From: Bdellovibrionales bacterium
GTDB taxonomy: Bacteria; Bdellovibrionota; Bdellovibrionia; Bdellovibrionales; UBA1609
Direction: 5' to 3'
DNA: 64,000 nt
Assembly: GCA_965242635.1 (NCBI GenBank)
Contig: OZ251471.1
Coordinates: 1,227,388 to 1,291,387, forward strand
The first letter of the stretch is position 1. The number at the start of each line of letters is the position of its first letter. The notes under the pieces were generated by a model that made no database searches, was not told where the DNA came from, and worked only from the letters and a program-made list of their open reading frames with translations. Positions 9,797-59,920 of this stretch are shown piece by piece. Made by a program: the position numbers and the translations under genes.

Positions 9797-11434
9797 TCAT
9801 AATATTTTTTCCGGCACAAGCTGAACCACAGACACTTTTTTGTCATTTAAGTAAAGTCGGGCGTTTTCCCGAATACTCTCCGCTGTCACATTTTCATACT
9901 CGCTCAGAGAATGAAACAACTGCCGGTGATCGCCAAAATAAGCTGTGTAATGGGAAAGGGAGTTGGCTTTTCCGGAAAGCGATTTAACTGCAGAAACATA
10001 ATCATTCATAATCATTCGGGCACTTTTAAGCCTTTCTTTTTCACTGATGTCCGAAGTCCTGGCTTTTTGTATCTCCGCCATAATCAGTTTTTGAGCTTTG
10101 TTCAAATCCCCTGTGGGAGTCATTTTCACCACCACCAAAAAGATACCTTCGTCTTTCATATCATAGTAAAAACCGCCAACAGACAGAGCCAGCTTGTGCC
10201 GGTATACCAAGAGCTTGTGCAAACGGCTGGATTCCCCACGGGTCAAAACCTGATTCAGCACATCCAAAGGGTAATATTTTTTGTCACCGGCCTTGGGGCC
10301 TCTGTAAGCCAGAACAAGAGTGGGGGCATGAATGGCCCTTTTTATTCGAATGTTTCGGGGTTGGGTTTGTGCCGACACTTTATGAGTAACAGCGGGAGGA
10401 AGTTCTGAAGGCTTTAAGGCACCGTAGTATTTCTGAATCCACTTTTTGGCTTTTTTGGAATCAAAGTGCCCGGCCAAAGTGAGAATGGCGTTATTGGGGG
10501 CATAATGGGTCTGGTAAAACTTTTGACAGTCGGTCAGTGTCATGGTCTCCAGATCTTTCATCCACCCAATAATAGGCCTTCCATAAGGGTGGGAGGGAAA
10601 AATCAGTTTCATCAGAGGTTCCAAAAACTCGTTGGGGTTGTTGTCGGTTCTCATTCTTCGCTCTTCTTTTACCACTTCTATTTCCTTGTTCAGGTTTTTT
10701 TGGTTCAGCTGAAGACTGTTCAGCCGTTCCGCCTCCATCTTCAGCACGGTTTTTAATTCATGGCTGGGAAGCAGAACATGGTAGGCTGTCAGGTCCCGGT
10801 TGGTCCAGGCATTGTTTCTGGCCCCCATGGATTCCAGTTTTTCTTCATACTCCTCCCCGGTGTATTTTTTGGTGCCTCTGAACATCATGTGTTCAAACAA
10901 ATGGGCCAGTCCGGTTTTGCCCTCCACTTCATCTTTGGAGCCGGTTTTGATCATGAGCTGATGATACACCTGAGGCACACGAGGATCCTCATGCAACAAA
11001 ACAGTCAGCCCGTTTTTAAGAGAATACTTTTCCACTTCCAAGTGGATAAGACCCTGTTCTTTTGAATTGGTTTGGGCTGTTACATCAGTGGTTTTGTCTG
11101 CTTGTATTTGTTTCATCCCGGTTTGGTCCTTTTGTGTCCCCTCTTGTGCGGGCTGGTTTGTTGTATCTGTCCCACTTTCCGCCACACTTTCAGGGCCTGA
11201 TCCTGAGCTTTTTTTTTCTGTCAGGGGGGAGGAAAAAGCCCTTATACTGATCGTGTTTGAAAATTCATGGTTCAAATTTCCCGGACAGGAGGGAAAAACC
11301 TCACAAGCGACACCTTTTTCAAAAGGCAGACCCCTCGGGGCAGGTTCTGCCTGCCCCGTGCCAGTTTGGTTTAAAGAAAACACAAGTGACCCTGTGTAGA
11401 CAAGCCAACTCACAGTCCATAAAAAAAAAGGCAT
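9797..11434 (-). CDS. M16-family zinc peptidase (pitrilysin-like)
   Basis: HLFEHMMFRGTKKY is the HxxEH zinc motif. I chose the start at MPFFLWTVSW (signal-like). The track ORF extends to 11530 but overlaps the upstream lipoprotein gene. The N-terminal region reads through interspersed element copy A. Confidence 0.85.
   Translation of the reverse strand: MPFFLWTVSWLVYTGSLVFSLNQTGTGQAEPAPRGLPFEKGVACEVFPSCPGNLNHEFSNTISIRAFSSPLTEKKSSGSGPESVAESGTDTTNQPAQEGTQKDQTGMKQIQADKTTDVTAQTNSKEQGLIHLEVEKYSLKNGLTVLLHEDPRVPQVYHQLMIKTGSKDEVEGKTGLAHLFEHMMFRGTKKYTGEEYEEKLESMGARNNAWTNRDLTAYHVLLPSHELKTVLKMEAERLNSLQLNQKNLNKEIEVVKEERRMRTDNNPNEFLEPLMKLIFPSHPYGRPIIGWMKDLETMTLTDCQKFYQTHYAPNNAILTLAGHFDSKKAKKWIQKYYGALKPSELPPAVTHKVSAQTQPRNIRIKRAIHAPTLVLAYRGPKAGDKKYYPLDVLNQVLTRGESSRLHKLLVYRHKLALSVGGFYYDMKDEGIFLVVVKMTPTGDLNKAQKLIMAEIQKARTSDISEKERLKSARMIMNDYVSAVKSLSGKANSLSHYTAYFGDHRQLFHSLSEYENVTAESIRENARLYLNDKKVSVVQLVPEKIL
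11241..11376 (-). repeat. Interspersed modular element, copy A (full length, in frame in the 5' part of the M16 peptidase ORF)
   Basis: The gene-sense strand reads TTAAACCAAACTGGCACGGGGCAGGCAGAACCTGCCCCGAGGGGTCTGCC TTTTGAAAAAGGTG...GAAATTTGAACCATGAATTTTCAAACACGATCAGTATAAG. The hairpin module is near-identical to copy B. Confidence 0.85.
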
Positions 11435-23510: not shown

Positions 23511-24976
23511 AGGCTTTAAGACTGTTGCCAATGATGTTTTTTTTGTTGTCGCCGGTGCTTTTCCATGAGCCGGCTCAAGCTGGATTTGTCAAAAAGAAAA
23601 CCAGACCAAAGGTAAAGCCGGAAACCTGGCGGGTCCCTTCCCCTCCCATAAAAACACCCTCCCAATCACCCATCGTGGCCTCCACCAATCCCTATCAGCA
23701 GTGCCGGGCCACTGTTATGCCCTCCTTTATCAGCCATTCCATGGGTATGGATGAAACCGGTTACCGTTCTTTCAAAGCTCTCTCCCCGCCTTCCATTTTG
23801 GTCCATGCGGCCGGTAACTCTCATCCTCAGCCATTATCCTCAGCCGAAAATAAAGCCAGCCGGGATTATAATGCCATTATTGTGGGCTCCATGTCTCCTG
23901 AAGGGGTGCGGAGCAGTTTTTCACAGGAAGGGGAGGCCGTCACCATCATGGCCCCTTCTGATCATTATCTCACTTCTGCCACCTCCACAGGGCATTATCG
24001 AAAATATAGTGGCACAAGTGGAGCCACCCCTTTGGTGACAGGCAGTCTGGCCGGTTTTGAGTGGATGGCCGGCTACCATCCCACAGCGGAGGAGGCCAAA
24101 ACTTTATTGGAAAAAACAGCCATCCCCACCCCTTATTCCAAAGACAAGCCCCGAAAAAATGGAGCGGGCATGGTCAACGCCTACAAACTGGCTATGGTGG
24201 GAAAACAGTTAAAACAAGCTTGTGGAAAAAACATATCCTGCTTTAAGGACCTGATAAAAAAAGACGACATTTATCAATTTCCTGAAGACGAGGCTGTGAT
24301 TGAGGCTTTGGACAAGGCTTTCCCTTATTGTTCCTCCACCTGCACAGCAGAGGAATTGAAAACCGAATCTTCATGTGCGGATAAAGCCCAGGCCTTTAAA
24401 GATTTAAGGAAACAGGCTTTCTTAAACCCTCAGAACAAAGCCCTTTGGAAAAAGATGGCCTGTGTGTATGCTCAAGGGGGTTTTGGCAAAAACACAGCTT
24501 TTGCTCTAAACATTTACAACACTCTTTCCGGCCGTCCCAACAGAGATCCTATTGGGTCCAGTGGCGGTTATCTGGCCGATATTTATTGTCAAAAAGATGA
24601 GGACTGTGCTTTGGCGACACCTTGCTCTGAAAAACCCGGCTCCAGATTACAAATCATGAGCAGGAGCTTTGTTGAACGCCATTATCTCCAATGTTTGGAG
24701 CAAAACAGGAAATACCCTCTTTGCAACGGCAAATGCCGGTGCGGTTCTCAGGAAAGTATAACAGAACCCCTGTCTTCTCCTGCCAAACCAGGTTCTGAGG
24801 ATGAAAAGAGAAAAAGAAGGGTTCAAAGTACTACCACATACAGTGTGGCCTGTATAAATTTCCAATGTATTAAGGGTATGAAAGTAGAAATAAGCGACAT
24901 GCCTGCTGAGCCTCCGGCCCCTAAACAGAAGGCGGAACCACCGGCCAATCCTACTGGCGGAGGGGCTGTGCGATAG
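23504..24976 (+). CDS. Secreted protein carrying the C-terminal (Asn, Ser) part of a subtilase S8 domain plus a Cys-rich extension
   Basis: It has its own signal peptide (MKALRLLPMMFFLLSPVLFHEPAQAG). The S8 motifs are ISHSMGMD (INMSLGG-like), ILVHAAGNS (oxyanion Asn) and SGTSGATPLVTGSLAG (catalytic Ser). It ends ...PPANPTGGGAVR. Confidence 0.65.
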   Translation, partial: AMKALRLLPMMFFLLSPVLFHEPAQAGFVKKKTRPKVKPETWRVPSPPIKTPSQSPIVASTNPYQQCRATVMPSFISHSMGMDETGYRSFKALSPPSILVHAAGNSHPQPLSSAENKASRDYNAIIVGSMSPEGVRSSFSQEGEAVTIMAPSDHYLTSATSTGHYRKYSGTSGATPLVTGSLAGFEWMAGYHPTAEEAKTLLEKTAIPTPYSKDKPRKNGAGMVNAYKLAMVGKQLKQACGKNISCFKDLIKKDDIYQFPEDEAVIEALDKAFPYCSSTCTAEELKTESSCADKAQAFKDLRKQAFLNPQNKALWKKMACVYAQGGFGKNTAFALNIYNTLSGRPNRDPIGSSGGYLADIYCQKDEDCALATPCSEKPGSRLQIMSRSFVERHYLQCLEQNRKYPLCNGKCRCGSQESITEPLSSPAKPGSEDEKRKRRVQSTTTYSVACINFQCIKGMKVEISDMPAEPPAPKQKAEPPANPTGGGAVR

Positions 24977-26792
24977 CCGGTCCCCGTCTCACCAGAATAA
25001 GCAGAAGGCAGACCCATAAAAACACCTGATTGATATAATAGCCATAAGAAACAAAAAATGCAGAAGGTTGATTGTCTTTTGAGTAAAGGGGTATCTCTTC
25101 CCACCCGCTTTGCACACCAAAGTCCTTAAAAACCAGTATATCCCCTTTGGCGGACACAATGGCAGAAGGCCCGGAGTTGGCCCCGCGAATCAAAGGCCGA
25201 CGCATCTCCACAGCCCGACTCAAAGTCATATAAGCCAGCTGATAAGGCTCCTGCCACCGGCCAAAGTAAGCGTCGTTGGCGACATTTACTATCAGATCCG
25301 CCCCTTCCCTCACCAAATCCCGCGTCACATGGTCAAAAAGGCCCTCATAACAGATATGAAAGCCCAGTCTCCATTGGCTTAGAGGGGCTGTTTTATATTT
25401 TCCAGTCCCTTTTTTAAAGATTTTGCTTTGCTCCCCAAAGAGCCATCTATCCATAAAGGGAAACCACCTGGCCCCCGGAGTGTATTCCCCTATGGGGGTC
25501 AAAAGCCCTTTGTCGTAAGGTGGCTGAACAAGCCCTCCCTCTTTATCAAAGACAAAAATGGAATTGGTGTATGTTTTTTCTGCTGGATCCGCTTTGTCTG
25601 TTTTAACAGGTTCAGGTGTTTTTATATGCCGGCCCCTGGCCGACACCACCAGGGCTGTGTCAAAAACCCGGACCCATTTTTGTATGAGGTCCTGTCCTCT
25701 TTCAGCGGCTTCAAGGTGGATGGGATAAGGGTAAGCCCCTTCCGGCCACAGAATAAAGTCCGGTTTAAGGGCCTGGCCCTCAGCCAAAGTGGATGTTTGA
25801 GCCTTTGAGGTTGAAGGGGGCGAGGAGACTTGAGGATAAAAGTGTTTTGAAGTTGCTTGCAGTAGTTTGGACATGACAAGCGGGCGGGATTCTTTGTCAT
25901 CCTGTTGATGATTTTCGATATTGGGTTGAATCATCAGAACATGAACTTTTTGATCCGTTTCCGGCAGGCGGTTTTTTAAATACCCCCCACAGCCATTCAA
26001 ACCCACCATTAACAAAAGCCAGCCAGCAAAGAGAACTATACTAATCCTGTTTGAAAATGCATGTTTCATATTTGCCTTGTGAGAGGGAAACAGCCCAAAA
26101 ACAGCACCCTTTTCAAAAGGCAGACCCCTCGGGGCAGGTTCTGCCTGCCCCGTGCCAGTTTGGTTTAAATAGTGGTGTCTAAAAAAGGGGCACTTCCTCA
26201 AAAACAAAGGTTTTTCACGAGCCATCCCCAAATAAAGCCACAGGAATATCAGATTGGAAAACAAAGTCAGAGTGTTTAAAAACCGAAAGCCCCATATTTC
26301 CGCTGTTTGTGCCATGGGCCATTTTGCGTAAAAGTACATATAGCCCAGGTGCCAGTCAAAAATCATGGGAACATATTCTGTGCTCAGGCCAAGCAGGACA
26401 GGCAATAAAAACAAAACAGACAAAGCACTGGCGAAGTCTTGTGTTCGGAGGGCTTTTCGGAAAAAAAACCACAATAAAAGAGAAAGAGGGATATGGAGAT
26501 TGGCCACAGAGCAAAAGACCAAAAAAAGAACAAGGGCCTGATAGAGGGGGAATTCCATTTCCATCAGTGTGCCCGGAAGATAACCAAATCCAATCAGAGT
26601 GAGCATGAACTGGCAAAGCCAGCTTCCTGTGATTAAAGGCCCCAACTTTTCTGTTTTAAGGGCAAACAGCCAAAGGGGCACATAACAAAAAAACAGGGCG
26701 TAAGGGGGAAAAGGGATATAGCTGGTCCCGATAAAAAAGCCGGAGAGCAAAGGCCAAAAAAAGGACTTTTGTGTTATACGGCGAAAAATCAT
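24951..26792 (-). CDS. lnt: Apolipoprotein N-acyltransferase
   Basis: A polytopic N-terminal region is followed by a CN-hydrolase domain with ILWPEGAYP and HICYEGLF motifs. It contains element copy B in frame. Confidence 0.85.
   Translation of the reverse strand: MIFRRITQKSFFWPLLSGFFIGTSYIPFPPYALFFCYVPLWLFALKTEKLGPLITGSWLCQFMLTLIGFGYLPGTLMEMEFPLYQALVLFLVFCSVANLHIPLSLLLWFFFRKALRTQDFASALSVLFLLPVLLGLSTEYVPMIFDWHLGYMYFYAKWPMAQTAEIWGFRFLNTLTLFSNLIFLWLYLGMAREKPLFLRKCPFFRHHYLNQTGTGQAEPAPRGLPFEKGAVFGLFPSHKANMKHAFSNRISIVLFAGWLLLMVGLNGCGGYLKNRLPETDQKVHVLMIQPNIENHQQDDKESRPLVMSKLLQATSKHFYPQVSSPPSTSKAQTSTLAEGQALKPDFILWPEGAYPYPIHLEAAERGQDLIQKWVRVFDTALVVSARGRHIKTPEPVKTDKADPAEKTYTNSIFVFDKEGGLVQPPYDKGLLTPIGEYTPGARWFPFMDRWLFGEQSKIFKKGTGKYKTAPLSQWRLGFHICYEGLFDHVTRDLVREGADLIVNVANDAYFGRWQEPYQLAYMTLSRAVEMRRPLIRGANSGPSAIVSAKGDILVFKDFGVQSGWEEIPLYSKDNQPSAFFVSYGYYINQVFLWVCLLLILVRRGPAIAQPLRQ
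26036..26169 (-). repeat. Interspersed modular element, copy B (full length, in frame inside lnt)
   Basis: The terminal and hairpin modules (about 26107-26169, ~60 bp) are nearly identical to copy A, and the remainder is diverged. It is translated as LNQTGTGQAEPAPRGLPFEKGAVFGLFPSHKANMKHAFSNRISI. Confidence 0.85.
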
Positions 26793-27629: not shown

Positions 27630-30600
27630 TTAATAAAGTTGAATTTTTTGCCGGCCCAATGTTTTTTGGATATTCTCCAAAAAGGAGGAGCTCAAAGTCA
27701 CCCCATGAAAAGTGCCTGATTTCAGGCACACGGTTTTGGCAGGGCTTTTTAATTTCACATTAAAATACAAAGGCACATTTCCGCTGTATTGGCTTAATAA
27801 CTCCTTAAGCTGAGCCATTTTGTCTTTTTCTGTCTCGTCCAGCTTTAAAATCAAACCACGGGAACGTCCGTTCAGCCGGCTCTCCACCCCTTCCACTTCC
27901 CGTGCCAAAAGCTTGCCATTTTTTTCCAAATCCCCTTTGATCACCAAAGGTTCACCCATCCGGCGAAGATTCTGCTCAAACTGGAGATACACATCCGCAA
28001 AAAAAACCACCTCCATGCCCCCGGTGCCATCCTCTATCCGTGTGAAAGCCATGGTGTGTCCTTTTCGTGTCCGAATCTCACGAAACTCACTGATGATGCC
28101 CCACACGCAGACCCCTGTTTTTTCCATATCACTTTTAAGGGAGGCTATGGGTGTACAGCCCCCCACCTTCATAAAAGACTGTAAGTGATCCATAGGGTGG
28201 CCACTCAGGTAAAAACCCATCACAGATTTTTCATAGTCCAAAAGTTGGGACCTCGACCACTCTACTTGTTTCTTATACATAAAGCCAGTGGATTTTTTTT
28301 GAGAACCAAAAAAGTTGATTTGCCCTGACTCCTTTTCCTCTTTCTTTTTTTCCACCTGCTCCACCAGAGCCTCGTAGTTGGTCAGTATTTCCTGCCGGTT
28401 CATTTCCATGCCGTCAAAGGCCCCGGCCTTGGTCAAGGCCTCCACACATTTTTTGTTTATTTTTTTTGTATCCACCGATTCAAAAAAGTGCTGAACAGAA
28501 GTAAATTTTCCAGAGGGCAGGGCTCGGCGGGTACGAACAATATGATCCGCCACCAAACGGCCCACCCCCTTAATGGCCCCCAGAGAAAAATAAATACGGC
28601 CCTTGACGGGGGCAAAAAAATACTCAGAGTGATTGATATGGGGGGGCATTATTTTGATACCATGTTTTTTGGTGTCCCTCATATAGGTCACCACTTTGTC
28701 TGTGTTGTTTCTTTCCACAGAAAGCAAAGAGGCAAAAAACTCCACCGGGTAATATCTCTTGAGCCAGGCTGTCTGGACCGCCAGCACACAATAAGCGGCG
28801 GCATGGGATTTGTTAAACCCATATTTTGCAAACTCAGCCACCAAATCAAACAGCTTTTCCGATTTTTTGGGATCGTATCCATTTTGAACCGCCCCTTCCA
28901 AAAAGCGGTTTTTTTGTTTTTTCATCACAGCTGTTTTTTTCTCCCCCATAGCCCGTCTTAAAACATCCGCCTCCCCATAGCTGTAGCCGGCTATTTTGGC
29001 CGCAATCAGCAAAACCTGCTCCTGATACACAATAATCCCGTAAGTTTCCCTTAAAACAGGCTCCATTTCATCAAACAAATACTCCACCCGGACCTTGCCT
29101 TTTTTTCTGTTCAGATAAGAGGGTATCATCTCCATGGGACCGGGCCTGAAAAGGGCATTGAGGGCCACGATGTCCTCAAAGCAGGAAGGTTCTGCTTTGA
29201 TAATCACATCCGTAATACCCTCCCCCTCAAACTGAAACACCCCTTTGGTGTCCCCTTTACGCATAATTTCATAAATGCCTTTGTCATTGAGGGAAATATC
29301 CCGGACAGAAAGTTTTTTGCCTTCGCTTCGTTCAATCATACGAAAGGCCGACTCTATTTGAGTGAGTGTTTTGAGACCCAGAAAATCAAATTTGACCAGG
29401 CCTATTTTTTTGGCATGATTTAAATCGCATTGGATCACATTCTCACCCTCTTTTCCGCGATAAAGGGGTGCGAAGTGAATAATGGGATGATCCGCTATAA
29501 TCACCCCGGCCGCGTGAATGCTCACATGGCGAATCAAACCTTCAATCCGGCGGGCCAGCTGAATCAGATTATCCACTTCAGGATCTGATTCCATCAGATC
29601 CTTTAAAGTTAAGTTCTCCTCCATGGCCTCTTTTAAAGTCACCTCCAGTCGATCCGGTATCAACCGGACCACCTGATCCACATCGGGGTAGCTCATGCCC
29701 AAAACACGGCCCACATCCCGCACTGCCGCACGAGCCTGAAGCCGTCCATAAGTCATCACCTGTGCCACATAATCCTTGCCGTATTTGGCACTCACATATT
29801 CAATGACACGATTTCTGTGTTCCTGACAAAAATCAATGTCAAAATCAGGGAGGGAGATTCTCTCCGGATTTAAAAACCTCTCAAACAACAGATTATACGG
29901 CATGGGATTCAGATCAGTGATCTTTAAGCACCAGGCCACAAGGGAGCTGGCCCCCGATCCCCGCCCCGGCCCAACAGGGATGTTTTCCTTTCTGGCCCAA
30001 TGAACAAAATCATGCACAATCAAAAAATAATCCGCAAAACCCATGTCATTTATGATTTTCAGCTCTTTATTCAGTCGCTCTTCGTATTTTTGCCTTAACT
30101 CCCCGATTTTATCCTGTTCAGAAAAGCCCTCTGCTTTGTCCTGCCAACGGTCTTCAAGCCCTTTAAAACTGAGGGCTTTTAATTGCTCCCTCGCACTTTT
30201 TCCCTCCTCTTTTATACTGATCTTGTTTGACTCCTGCCCCGAGGACTCTGCCTGTGCCCCAAAGCCAGTTTGGTTTAACTTGGGCAGATGATACAGAGGC
30301 CGGCCCCCTTTTTTCAGCTGAAAGTGCAGTTGACAGCGGGACACTATCTCCCCCACATTACTTAAAGCCTCCGGCTGGTCCTTAAAAAGCTCTCTCATTT
30401 CCTGAGAGCTTTTAAAATAAAACTGGTTTGATTTTAACTTAAACCGCTCCGGGTCCCGTATTGTTCTGTTGGCACCAATACAAAACAAAATATCCTGAAC
30501 AGTGGAATCCGCTTTATTCAGATAGTGCACATCGTTACCCACTGTGAGAGCTGTGCCTGTTGTTTGGCCAGTGGAGATCAAAAATTGATTAAACCTCTCC

Positions 30601-58608: not shown

Positions 58609-59733
58609 ATGTGTTCCCGGCTTGATTTATTGATTCTTAAAATCCTGGACCGGACAGGCAAAAGCCTGTTTAAGCTTTTGTCCCGTATCCCGTCCTTATC
58701 AGCTTTGTCTGTGGCTCTTTCAGGCCCTTTTTTTTGGCTGTTGTCTTACGATTCTTTTGCCTCTCTTCCCAATGCTGTTTTGATTCGTGCACCCAACACA
58801 CCAGCGAAAGAGTTTTCCGCTTATGCGGAAACAGAGCCTGTCAAAACCTATATTCAACATCGATTGGACAAGATCAAAAAAACCCCACGACCCTTGAATC
58901 TGCGGTCTCTTTTGAAACAGGCTCAGATGGACTTTTTGTCTCATGAGCCGGCTCATTCCAAAAAAAGTTTTCAGGCCATTTTCGAGCATATCCATGCTTT
59001 TGACTGGAACGAGGAGGAGAGAAAAATTATTTTCTACAGCCTTTTTCGCTTGGCTCAGCTGGAAAAAGACCCAAAAAAGCAGACTCTTTTACTGAAGGAG
59101 GCTTTGGCTTTCAGCATGGATCTTAAAGTGGATAAAGGTCTTTTTCCCCCTCCTGTGACAAGTCGTTATGAGCAGATTAAAAAATCGGCTGATTATGTGT
59201 CCGTGAACTTAAAGAAAATTTTTCCACAGCATCCTGTGGTTATCCTCAATGGTCGTGTGTATTCCCATCAGGAAAGCCCTGTTTTGCCTTATGGCCTTTA
59301 CAGGGTCAATGCATTAAGTGCCTCCCATAAATCCTGGACCAAAGTGCTCTCCCTTTCCCGGTTGATGGTGACCAACCCCGGCAGGAAAGCCCTGGTGGGA
59401 GGTGATTGCCGTAACCCGACTCTCACAGACCAGGACTTAAAGGGTCAGAACCTGCTGATTTTGTTTCCCAACTTTTGTGTATGGAGTTCGGCTGTTCAGC
59501 TGGCCAAAGCACAAAAAAAAGAGCTTTTGCCTGTAAAGGTTCAGATGGCAGAGAATTTAAAAGAGCCTGAGGAGGACCAGGGGCATTGGGAGGAATGGCT
59601 GTGGCTGGGGGTGGCTGTGGTGGGAGGGGCCACTGCCCTTTGGGCCTTGACCCGGAACGGGCAAAAAGAACAACAGAGATCGCCAAACCCCCCGGAAGAA
59701 AATCCTGCCCCCACAGTCAAAATAGGTTTTTAA
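58609..59733 (+). CDS. Hypothetical protein with a C-terminal TM anchor
   Basis: A 374-codon ORF following the Tad-like genes, with the TM segment WLWLGVAVVGGATALWAL near the C-terminus. Confidence 0.45.
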   Translation: MCSRLDLLILKILDRTGKSLFKLLSRIPSLSALSVALSGPFFWLLSYDSFASLPNAVLIRAPNTPAKEFSAYAETEPVKTYIQHRLDKIKKTPRPLNLRSLLKQAQMDFLSHEPAHSKKSFQAIFEHIHAFDWNEEERKIIFYSLFRLAQLEKDPKKQTLLLKEALAFSMDLKVDKGLFPPPVTSRYEQIKKSADYVSVNLKKIFPQHPVVILNGRVYSHQESPVLPYGLYRVNALSASHKSWTKVLSLSRLMVTNPGRKALVGGDCRNPTLTDQDLKGQNLLILFPNFCVWSSAVQLAKAQKKELLPVKVQMAENLKEPEEDQGHWEEWLWLGVAVVGGATALWALTRNGQKEQQRSPNPPEENPAPTVKIGF

Positions 59734-59920
59734 GCCAAACTGGCTTTGAAAAAGGTGCCGCTTGTAGGGTTTTTTCCTCTTATCCGGAAAATTTGAATCA
59801 TGAATTTTCAAACAAGATCGGTATAAGCCAAACTGGCTTTGAAAAAGGTGCCGCTTGTAGGGTTTTTTCCTCTTATCCGGAAAATTTGAATCATGAATTT
59901 TTCAAACAAGATCGGTATAA
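59729..59920 (+). repeat. Interspersed modular element, copies E1+E2 (head-to-tail dimer, 93-bp period, lacking the hairpin module)
   Basis: TAAGCCAAACTGGCTTTGAAAAAGGTGCCGCTTGTAGGGTTTTTTCCTCTTATCCGGAAAATTTGAATCATGAATTTT(T)CAAACAAGATCGGTATAA occurs twice. The two units share the junction TAA. Confidence 0.9.

Follow-up and report, generated by a model that had tools for sequence, protein, structure and literature searches.

A probable read-through insertion of a TA-targeting MITE in the lnt gene of an uncultured Bdellovibrionales bacterium

The gene for apolipoprotein N-acyltransferase (lnt) of a Bdellovibrionales bacterium very probably contains one in-frame insertion of a TA-targeting MITE (positions 26037-26167 of the window) that is read through, providing Lnt with 43 extra loop residues and leaving the enzyme likely functional. 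The window is the whole 64,000-nucleotide stretch analyzed here (G000:C1:1227388-1291387), and the host genome (G000) is a single contig of 1,998,056 bp with 44.7% G+C. A sensitive blastn search of this genome with three consensus queries found the repeat family in 174 non-overlapping places covering 15.9 kb in total. The family includes 93 end-to-end copies, whose median identity to the consensus is 94.7%. Copy B, the one within lnt, is listed in Table 1 together with its parts and with other family members in the window.

We propose that the MITE integrated at a TA in the part of lnt that encodes the cytoplasmic H6-H7 loop. As the net insertion of 129 bp is a multiple of three and the element has a sole stop-free frame on the strand of the gene, a ribosome would read straight through it. 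Lnt would thereby be extended on its cytoplasmic face by 43 residues, mostly disordered, with a net positive charge and presumably translated in vivo, and activity would probably be kept, the insert being far from the periplasmic active site. Insertions of this kind have occurred in two dozen or more further genes of the genome, selection having spared only open-frame insertions at permissive sites, i.e. loops, linkers and N-termini.

Table 1 Members of the repeat family in the window, parts of the copy in lnt, and the lnt gene itself (positions are those of the window)
Feature	Position	Strand	Remarks
Copy A, 131 bp, V2 core, 36-nt module as in copy B	11243..11373	+	In frame near the N-terminus of an M16 peptidase ORF (P0125; PF00675, PF05193)
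lnt, apolipoprotein N-acyltransferase, 613 aa	24951..26792	-	Host of copy B, in the cytoplasmic H6-H7 loop
Copy B, complete 131-bp MITE, V1 core and 36-nt module	26037..26167	+	94.7% identity to the V1-long consensus
Left TA of the putative target-site duplication, copy B	26037..26038	.	TA beside ~90% of family copies; single TA at empty paralogous sites
Left terminus of copy B, TATACTAATCCTGTTTGA (consensus TATACTGATCTTGTTTGA)	26037..26054	+	18-mer also ends other MITE families in G011 and G014
Optional 36-nt GC-rich hairpin module GGCAGACCCCTCGGGGCAGGTTCTGCCTGCCCCGTG, within the right terminal repeat	26119..26154	+	Encodes TGQAEPAPRGLP; 9-bp GC stem in mRNA fold
Right terminus of copy B, CCAGTTTGGTTTA, 13 nt	26155..26167	+	
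Right TA of the putative target-site duplication, copy B	26166..26167	.	Same basis as the left TA (family flanks, empty paralogous sites)
65-bp family derivative in dnaE	30213..30277	+	Both termini and hairpin-like interior, core deleted; net insertion 63 bp
Diverged family copy, ~75% identity	34486..34579	+	Genome positions 1261873-1261966
Head-to-tail dimer of two short units with one common TA	59731..59918	-	Period 93 bp

The insertion in lnt and its likely effect on the enzyme

A 51-nt string, GGCAGACCCC...GGTTTAAA, occurs in exactly two places in the window (11325-11375 and 26119-26169) and was not found in shuffled sequences (0 occurrences). These places belong to copies A and B, of which the latter had been reported in a preliminary description as a full-length element of ~134 bp, in frame in lnt. 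The copy is indeed complete and in frame, with boundaries TATAC...GGTTTA, and its length is 131 bp with both TA dinucleotides counted, which leaves a net insertion of 129 bp (43 codons). Translated from the minus strand, the copy corresponds to Lnt residues 209-252, LNQTGTGQAEPAPRGLPFEKGAVFGLFPSHKANMKHAFSNRISI. The TA duplication at the lnt site itself is presumed, being deduced from other copies of the family.

In an end-to-end alignment of copies A and B, each of 131 bp, the left termini agree at 18/20 positions, the cores at 35/53 and the right parts at 58/58, which bears out the earlier impression of a near-identical hairpin half beside a diverged core. The identity of that half holds, but it is not a single unit, since it is made up of an optional 36-nt module followed by the 13-nt right terminus. 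The two copies share a perfect right part and only 66% of the core because a V2 core (copy A) and a V1 core (copy B) are joined to a common 36-nt module, i.e. the family is a mosaic. A promoter and terminator scan of the lnt copy found no such site within the element, and an Rfam search of positions 25900-26300 with E-values up to 10 gave chance-level matches only. The lnt-sense RNA fold of copy B has a z-score of only -1.15, its sole strong feature being the GC stem of the module.

The Lnt ORF scores 179.9 bits against TIGR00546 (cut-off 132.9) and 56.2 bits against CN_hydrolase, while the LNT_N domain was undetected in it. Since the N-terminal part is interrupted by the insert, the match to TIGR00546 begins only at residue 249. 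When 17 Lnt sequences are aligned, the insert is located between FLNTLTLFSNLIFLWLYL (H6) and VLFAGWLLLMVGLNG (H7), a segment of variable length, and it is absent from all 16 homologues aligned with the window protein, even from the nearest two (64% and 59% identity). H7 is the helix that leads into the CN-hydrolase domain, and the preliminary description had correctly placed the insert directly before it. That Lnt is ~100 aa longer than the E. coli enzyme was also noted there; the length of 613 aa is right, but the element accounts for only 43-44 residues, the rest being lineage-specific loops common to the orthologues.

[quoted passage not shown] By this topology the H6-H7 loop and the insert face the cytoplasm, which answers the question raised earlier about the side of the membrane, and the net charge of +3, as read from the sequence of the insert, fits a cytoplasmic location. 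The AlphaFold2 model of Lnt has a mean pLDDT of 76.6, with values below 50 at residues 195-239 and a continuous helix at 237-275, indicating that the insert is probably a floppy loop whose last residues extend H7. TM-scores of the model, normalised by target length, are 0.74-0.80 against full-length Lnt structures and 0.76-0.80 against 5n6m, 5xhq and 6q3a. The catalytic triad, E351/K428/C481, is invariant, and the protein also has the other invariant motifs. Lnt with the insert most likely stays functional.

It is unlikely that the insertion inactivated or crippled the window lnt, leaving the gene to drift into a pseudogene and N-acylation to the paralogue. This second full-length lnt (G000:C1:1553442-1555094; 586 aa, 43% identical, with an intact triad and without a copy of the element) could mask a loss of function. 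Orthologues of both genes lie on one contig of a sister genome (P0002, P0067) and, when the same two genomes are compared, the window lnt shows 70% identity to its orthologue as against 81% for the paralogue. Such faster divergence would leave some room for weaker constraint, but we see no sign of decay in the sequence. The ORF is uninterrupted, and it deviates from the alignment at 0 of the 112 columns that are highly conserved in the other 16 sequences, the lowest count of the set. Moreover, the loop that received the insert was already variable in length across the family and lies on the opposite side of the membrane from the active site. Two lnt genes are also kept in several other genomes of the clade and, as the pair is common to sister genomes, the duplication is older than the insertion. 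The preliminary description had named a disrupted lnt accompanied by a second intact gene as the finding that would speak against it. The second gene is there, but the window ORF is undisrupted and retains its triad. We therefore keep to an insertion that is very probably read through in a gene still likely to work.

Length classes of the element and its reading frames in host genes

Complete copies have TATACTGATCTTGTTTGA at the start and CCAGTTTGGTTTA at the end, and occur in discrete lengths of 95, 113, 131 and 149 bp. The length classes differ by an internal GC-rich hairpin module of 0, 18, 36 or 54 nt, situated between TTTTCAAAA and CCAGTTTGGTTTA, inside the right terminal repeat. With the TA duplication taken into account the net insertions are 93, 111, 129 and 147 bp, all of them multiples of three. 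The modules are nested quasi-palindromes: the 18-nt form is GGCAGACC followed by CTGCCCCGTG, the 36-nt module is the 18-nt form with the addition of CCTCGGGGCAGGTTCTGC, and the 54-nt module is the 36-nt form with the addition of CAGAACCTGCCCCGAGGG. The last of these is the exact reverse complement of 18 nt (CCCTCGGGGCAGGTTCTG) in the 36-nt module spanning its insertion point. This nested pattern suggests slippage or template switching in the hairpin, in a series that may be either growing or decaying.

The module sequence is the same across the core subfamilies, and the commonest 36-nt module is found in 11 copies, including copies A (V2) and B (V1). Sorted by exact module length (0, 18, 36 and 54/55 nt), subfamily V1 is represented by 37, 6, 14 and 2 copies, V2 by 1, 5, 8 and 1, and V3 by 4, 2, 3 and none. 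Six further copies have off-size modules, namely two of 37 nt and one of 39 nt in V1, one each of 1 nt and 19 nt in V2, and one of 40 nt in V3. Module-wise evolution, as suspected from copies A and B, is thus found throughout the family: the 0-, 18- and 36-nt states are found with every core, and the 54/55-nt form with V1 and V2. RNAalifold analysis of 83 distinct copies with the module removed gave energies of 0 and -3.4 for the two strands and no conserved structure for either, so the core of the element is not a structured RNA.

The consensus has exactly one stop-free frame per strand, an arrangement that arises in ~10% of shuffled sequences. Of the 93 complete copies, 27 are located within long ORFs, defined by a length of at least 150 aa and by 15 or more residues on either side of the insert. 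Seventeen of these copies have the orientation seen in lnt, all of them in the NQTG...SNKISI frame, and the other 10 are in the opposite orientation. At least 11 host genes have Pfam identities. Hosts confirmed by Pfam, in which the insert falls between or outside domains, include GcvP, NnrE/NnrD (YjeF_N/Carb_kinase), a MenD-like TPP enzyme, an FAD oxidase and CcsA; the GcvP ORF has a second, partial copy as well. When the insert region of Lnt was searched against a database of 5.8 billion proteins, nine proteins were found, all encoded by the host genome, and this search added SucA, the M16 peptidase of copy A and a chorismate-binding enzyme to the list of hosts.

The recurrence of one peptide frame in 17 genes raises the question of whether the encoded segment of 31-49 aa is useful and has been kept for a function, e.g. 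as an interaction, membrane-association or degradation tag. That every size class preserves the frame, with an open frame on both strands, would be in line with this, the latter property having the frequency in shuffled sequences given above. The three core subfamilies encode quite different peptides, however, and the opposite orientation encodes an unrelated one; 66/93 complete copies are outside long ORFs. The element peptides have no match in Pfam, the segment is predicted to be disordered in the Lnt model, and in the search of 5.8 billion proteins the peptide was found in no genome other than that of the host. A selected peptide function is accordingly very improbable, and we regard the segments as tolerated read-through of a mobile element.

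The four size classes in multiples of three, the module steps of 18 nt (6 codons) and the presence of a stop-free frame on each strand are also the basis of a more tentative reading. It is possible, if doubtful, that the family is adapted to life inside genes, its coding-compatible design having been selected as a means for a MITE to persist in a 2-Mb predator genome densely packed with genes. If this were true, essential proteins, Lnt, DnaE, GcvP and SucA among them, would steadily acquire new loops from the family.

Transposition signature and distribution of the family

The termini of the element are imperfect inverted repeats of ~22 bp, with 16/21 positions matching between left and right when a 1-nt gap is allowed. 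They are conserved in the family, in which the interior is variable, and a TA is present on each side in ~90% of copies. The flanks of copies were joined and searched against the host genome. Two copies, at 242999 and 1224147, have empty paralogous sites with a single TA, at 1858154-1858246 and 1001924-1002038, respectively. A third copy (1099012) lies within a V3 copy, having entered it at a TA. Together with the head-to-tail dimer, whose two units have one TA in common, these sites show that the target TA is duplicated. The repeat has a length of 95-149 bp, is present in many copies and encodes no transposase, its sole open frames being the read-through frames without a Pfam match. It is a MITE, i.e. 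a non-autonomous DNA transposon that targets and duplicates TA.

Spread by recombination or gene conversion among hairpin-bearing sequences, in the manner of REP/BIME repeats and not by cut-and-paste transposition, would account for the mosaic of core subfamilies and module states and for the failure to find a cognate transposase, but it is hardly credible in view of the precise pairs of filled and empty sites with a 2-bp TA duplication, the nested insertion, the conserved termini, and other MITE families of the genus that combine the same 18-nt terminus with unrelated interiors.

A strict TA target and a 2-bp TA duplication characterize the IS630/Tc1-mariner-type transposons and their MITE derivatives, and both features are shared by the repeat described here. 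We infer that the mobilising transposase is IS630/Tc1-like and acts in trans. Among inverted pairs of MITE termini located 40-6000 bp apart in the host genome, none encloses a transposase ORF or bounds a long element, and that genome yielded no autonomous element whose ends match.

The host genome has a resident, active-looking IS630-family insertion sequence. It is flanked by TA, encodes a DDE_3 transposase of 343 aa and is present as eight near-identical copies plus a relic. The terminal repeats of this element, TTAAAAAGGCCATAAGTATTCCGATAATA, and the ends of its relic are unrelated to those of the MITE, which speaks against either as the autonomous partner. Among 15 genomes of the genus, DDE_3 transposases were found in the host genome only; none was detected in the 14 others, though two of these carry MITEs with the same terminus.

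The complete element was looked for in 30 related genomes and not found. One of the relatives (G001) has a 95-bp copy that is 74% identical, and the sister genome encoding the closest Lnt has a right-end fragment of the element between exbB and exbD. In each of two others (G011 and G014), the 18-nt left terminus recurs without mismatch at 40 or more places and encloses other interiors, e.g. in a 74-bp element of G011 with perfect terminal repeats TATACYGATCYTGTTT. This sharing of the terminus by elements with other interiors indicates that it marks a genus-wide MITE superfamily. The family that includes copies A and B has undergone a burst in the host species. The insertion in GcvP is not visibly common to other genomes of the genus, and searches of metagenome contigs gave 0 matches to the empty lnt site and no close relatives of Lnt.

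Relation to known repeats

The closest parallels in behavior are the Rickettsia palindromic elements RPE-1 to RPE-10 (Ogata et al. 2000, 2002), as far as these are summarised in PMC10969869. Going by that summary, they are likewise short repeats (~100-150 bp) of a small genome with many in-frame insertions in unrelated housekeeping genes, and their read-through yields additional peptide segments, located where the fold is not disturbed (PMC10969869). They differ in that their hosts are Alphaproteobacteria and not Bdellovibrionota. Compared with the RPEs as presented in that summary, the repeat described here has a clear TA duplication and terminal repeats, mostly intergenic copies and a stepwise 18-nt hairpin module. 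The comparison concerns behavior only, and we do not claim membership in RPE-1 to RPE-10 by sequence.

In anatomy, the family resembles the Correia elements (CREE/nemis) of Neisseria, which are MITEs of ~100-155 bp with terminal inverted repeats and a TA target, exist in discrete lengths determined by an internal segment, reach >100 copies in a ~2-Mb genome and have no known cognate transposase (PMC2649163). In contrast to the repeat described here, Correia elements lie mostly upstream of genes and exert their effects via promoters, IHF sites and RNase III; when they insert into a coding sequence, it is usually disrupted (PMC2649163). In-frame read-through is frequent in the present family, and neither promoter nor terminator was detected in the lnt copy. 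As CREE have been reported in Neisseria only (PMC2649163), and as the likeness is one of anatomy alone, membership is not claimed here either. Intragenic ERIC, the QMITE1 of Coxiella and the MITEs of Anabaena also have open frames and form in-frame fusions with host ORFs, but they represent other families and hosts, with far fewer genes per genome reported (PMC10969869).

The repeat is a new family with a known kind of behavior, RPE-like and Correia-like, and involves no new principle. It extends the RPE-like read-through of selfish repeats in essential genes from Rickettsia to an uncultured, small-genome lineage of Bdellovibrionales, with a transposition signature (TA duplication, terminal repeats and empty sites) that is clear in this family. 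Since gene callers and domain models are disturbed by the inserts, the repeats need to be taken into account when protein lengths in this clade are interpreted. The inserts also show where membrane-bound and soluble enzymes are permissive to insertion, in the present case at the cytoplasmic H6-H7 loop of Lnt.

Additional features of Lnt

The source genome (G000) has a second lnt paralogue encoding a protein of 586 aa, 43% identical to the window Lnt, and two lnt genes per genome were seen repeatedly in the small-genome Bdellovibrionales clade. Two more low-confidence, lineage-specific loops are found in the periplasmic domain of the window Lnt (residues 323-340 and 392-403); they are without relation to the repeat, are in part common to the closest orthologue and make up much of the remaining excess length of this protein compared to E. 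coli Lnt.

Element copies in GcvP and a resident IS630-family insertion sequence

The glycine dehydrogenase (GcvP) gene of G000 carries a complete 113-bp copy of the element and, approximately 200 bp downstream in the opposite orientation, a second, partial copy. Both are located in the linker joining the two halves of the protein; GcvP length ranges from 956 to 1150 aa across the genus.

An IS630-family insertion sequence (~1.15 kb, TA on its flanks, 343-aa DDE_3 transposase) is present in G000 as eight near-identical copies and one decayed copy. Fourteen further genomes from the same genus were searched for DDE_3, and none gave a match.

Positions of the features discussed in this part (G, genomes; L, single loci)
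Feature	Position	Remark
Window lnt	24951-26792	minus strand
Second lnt paralogue	G000:C1:1553442-1555094	
Complete element copy in gene for GcvP	G000:C1:1593490-1593602	
IS630-family copies	G000:C1:406264-406695 and seven further places	loci L050-L053, L064-L067
IS630-family relic	G000:C1:581881-582291	decayed copy
74-bp MITE, terminus TATACTGATCTTGTTTGA	L059:1457-1530	G011; perfect terminal repeats
Tandem 18-nt units	L045:1501-1590	G009
Solo right-end fragment	L049:8015-8056	sister genome

Related sequences in sister species and age of the family

The 18-nt terminus TATACTGATCTTGTTTGA is matched exactly in other MITE families of sister species, with unrelated interiors, at no fewer than 40 places in G011 and at least 40 in G014. 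In G009, the 18-nt unit GGGGCAGGTTCTGCCATC, similar to the hairpin module of the element, occurs five times in tandem, and these units are probably coding, as GAGSAI repeats. In the sister genome encoding the closest Lnt, the right end of the element is present on its own as a fragment, TTTTCAAAAGGCAGAACCTGCACCCCAAGCCAGTTTGGTTTA, in the exbB-exbD interval, and the element family is therefore older than the split of the two species.
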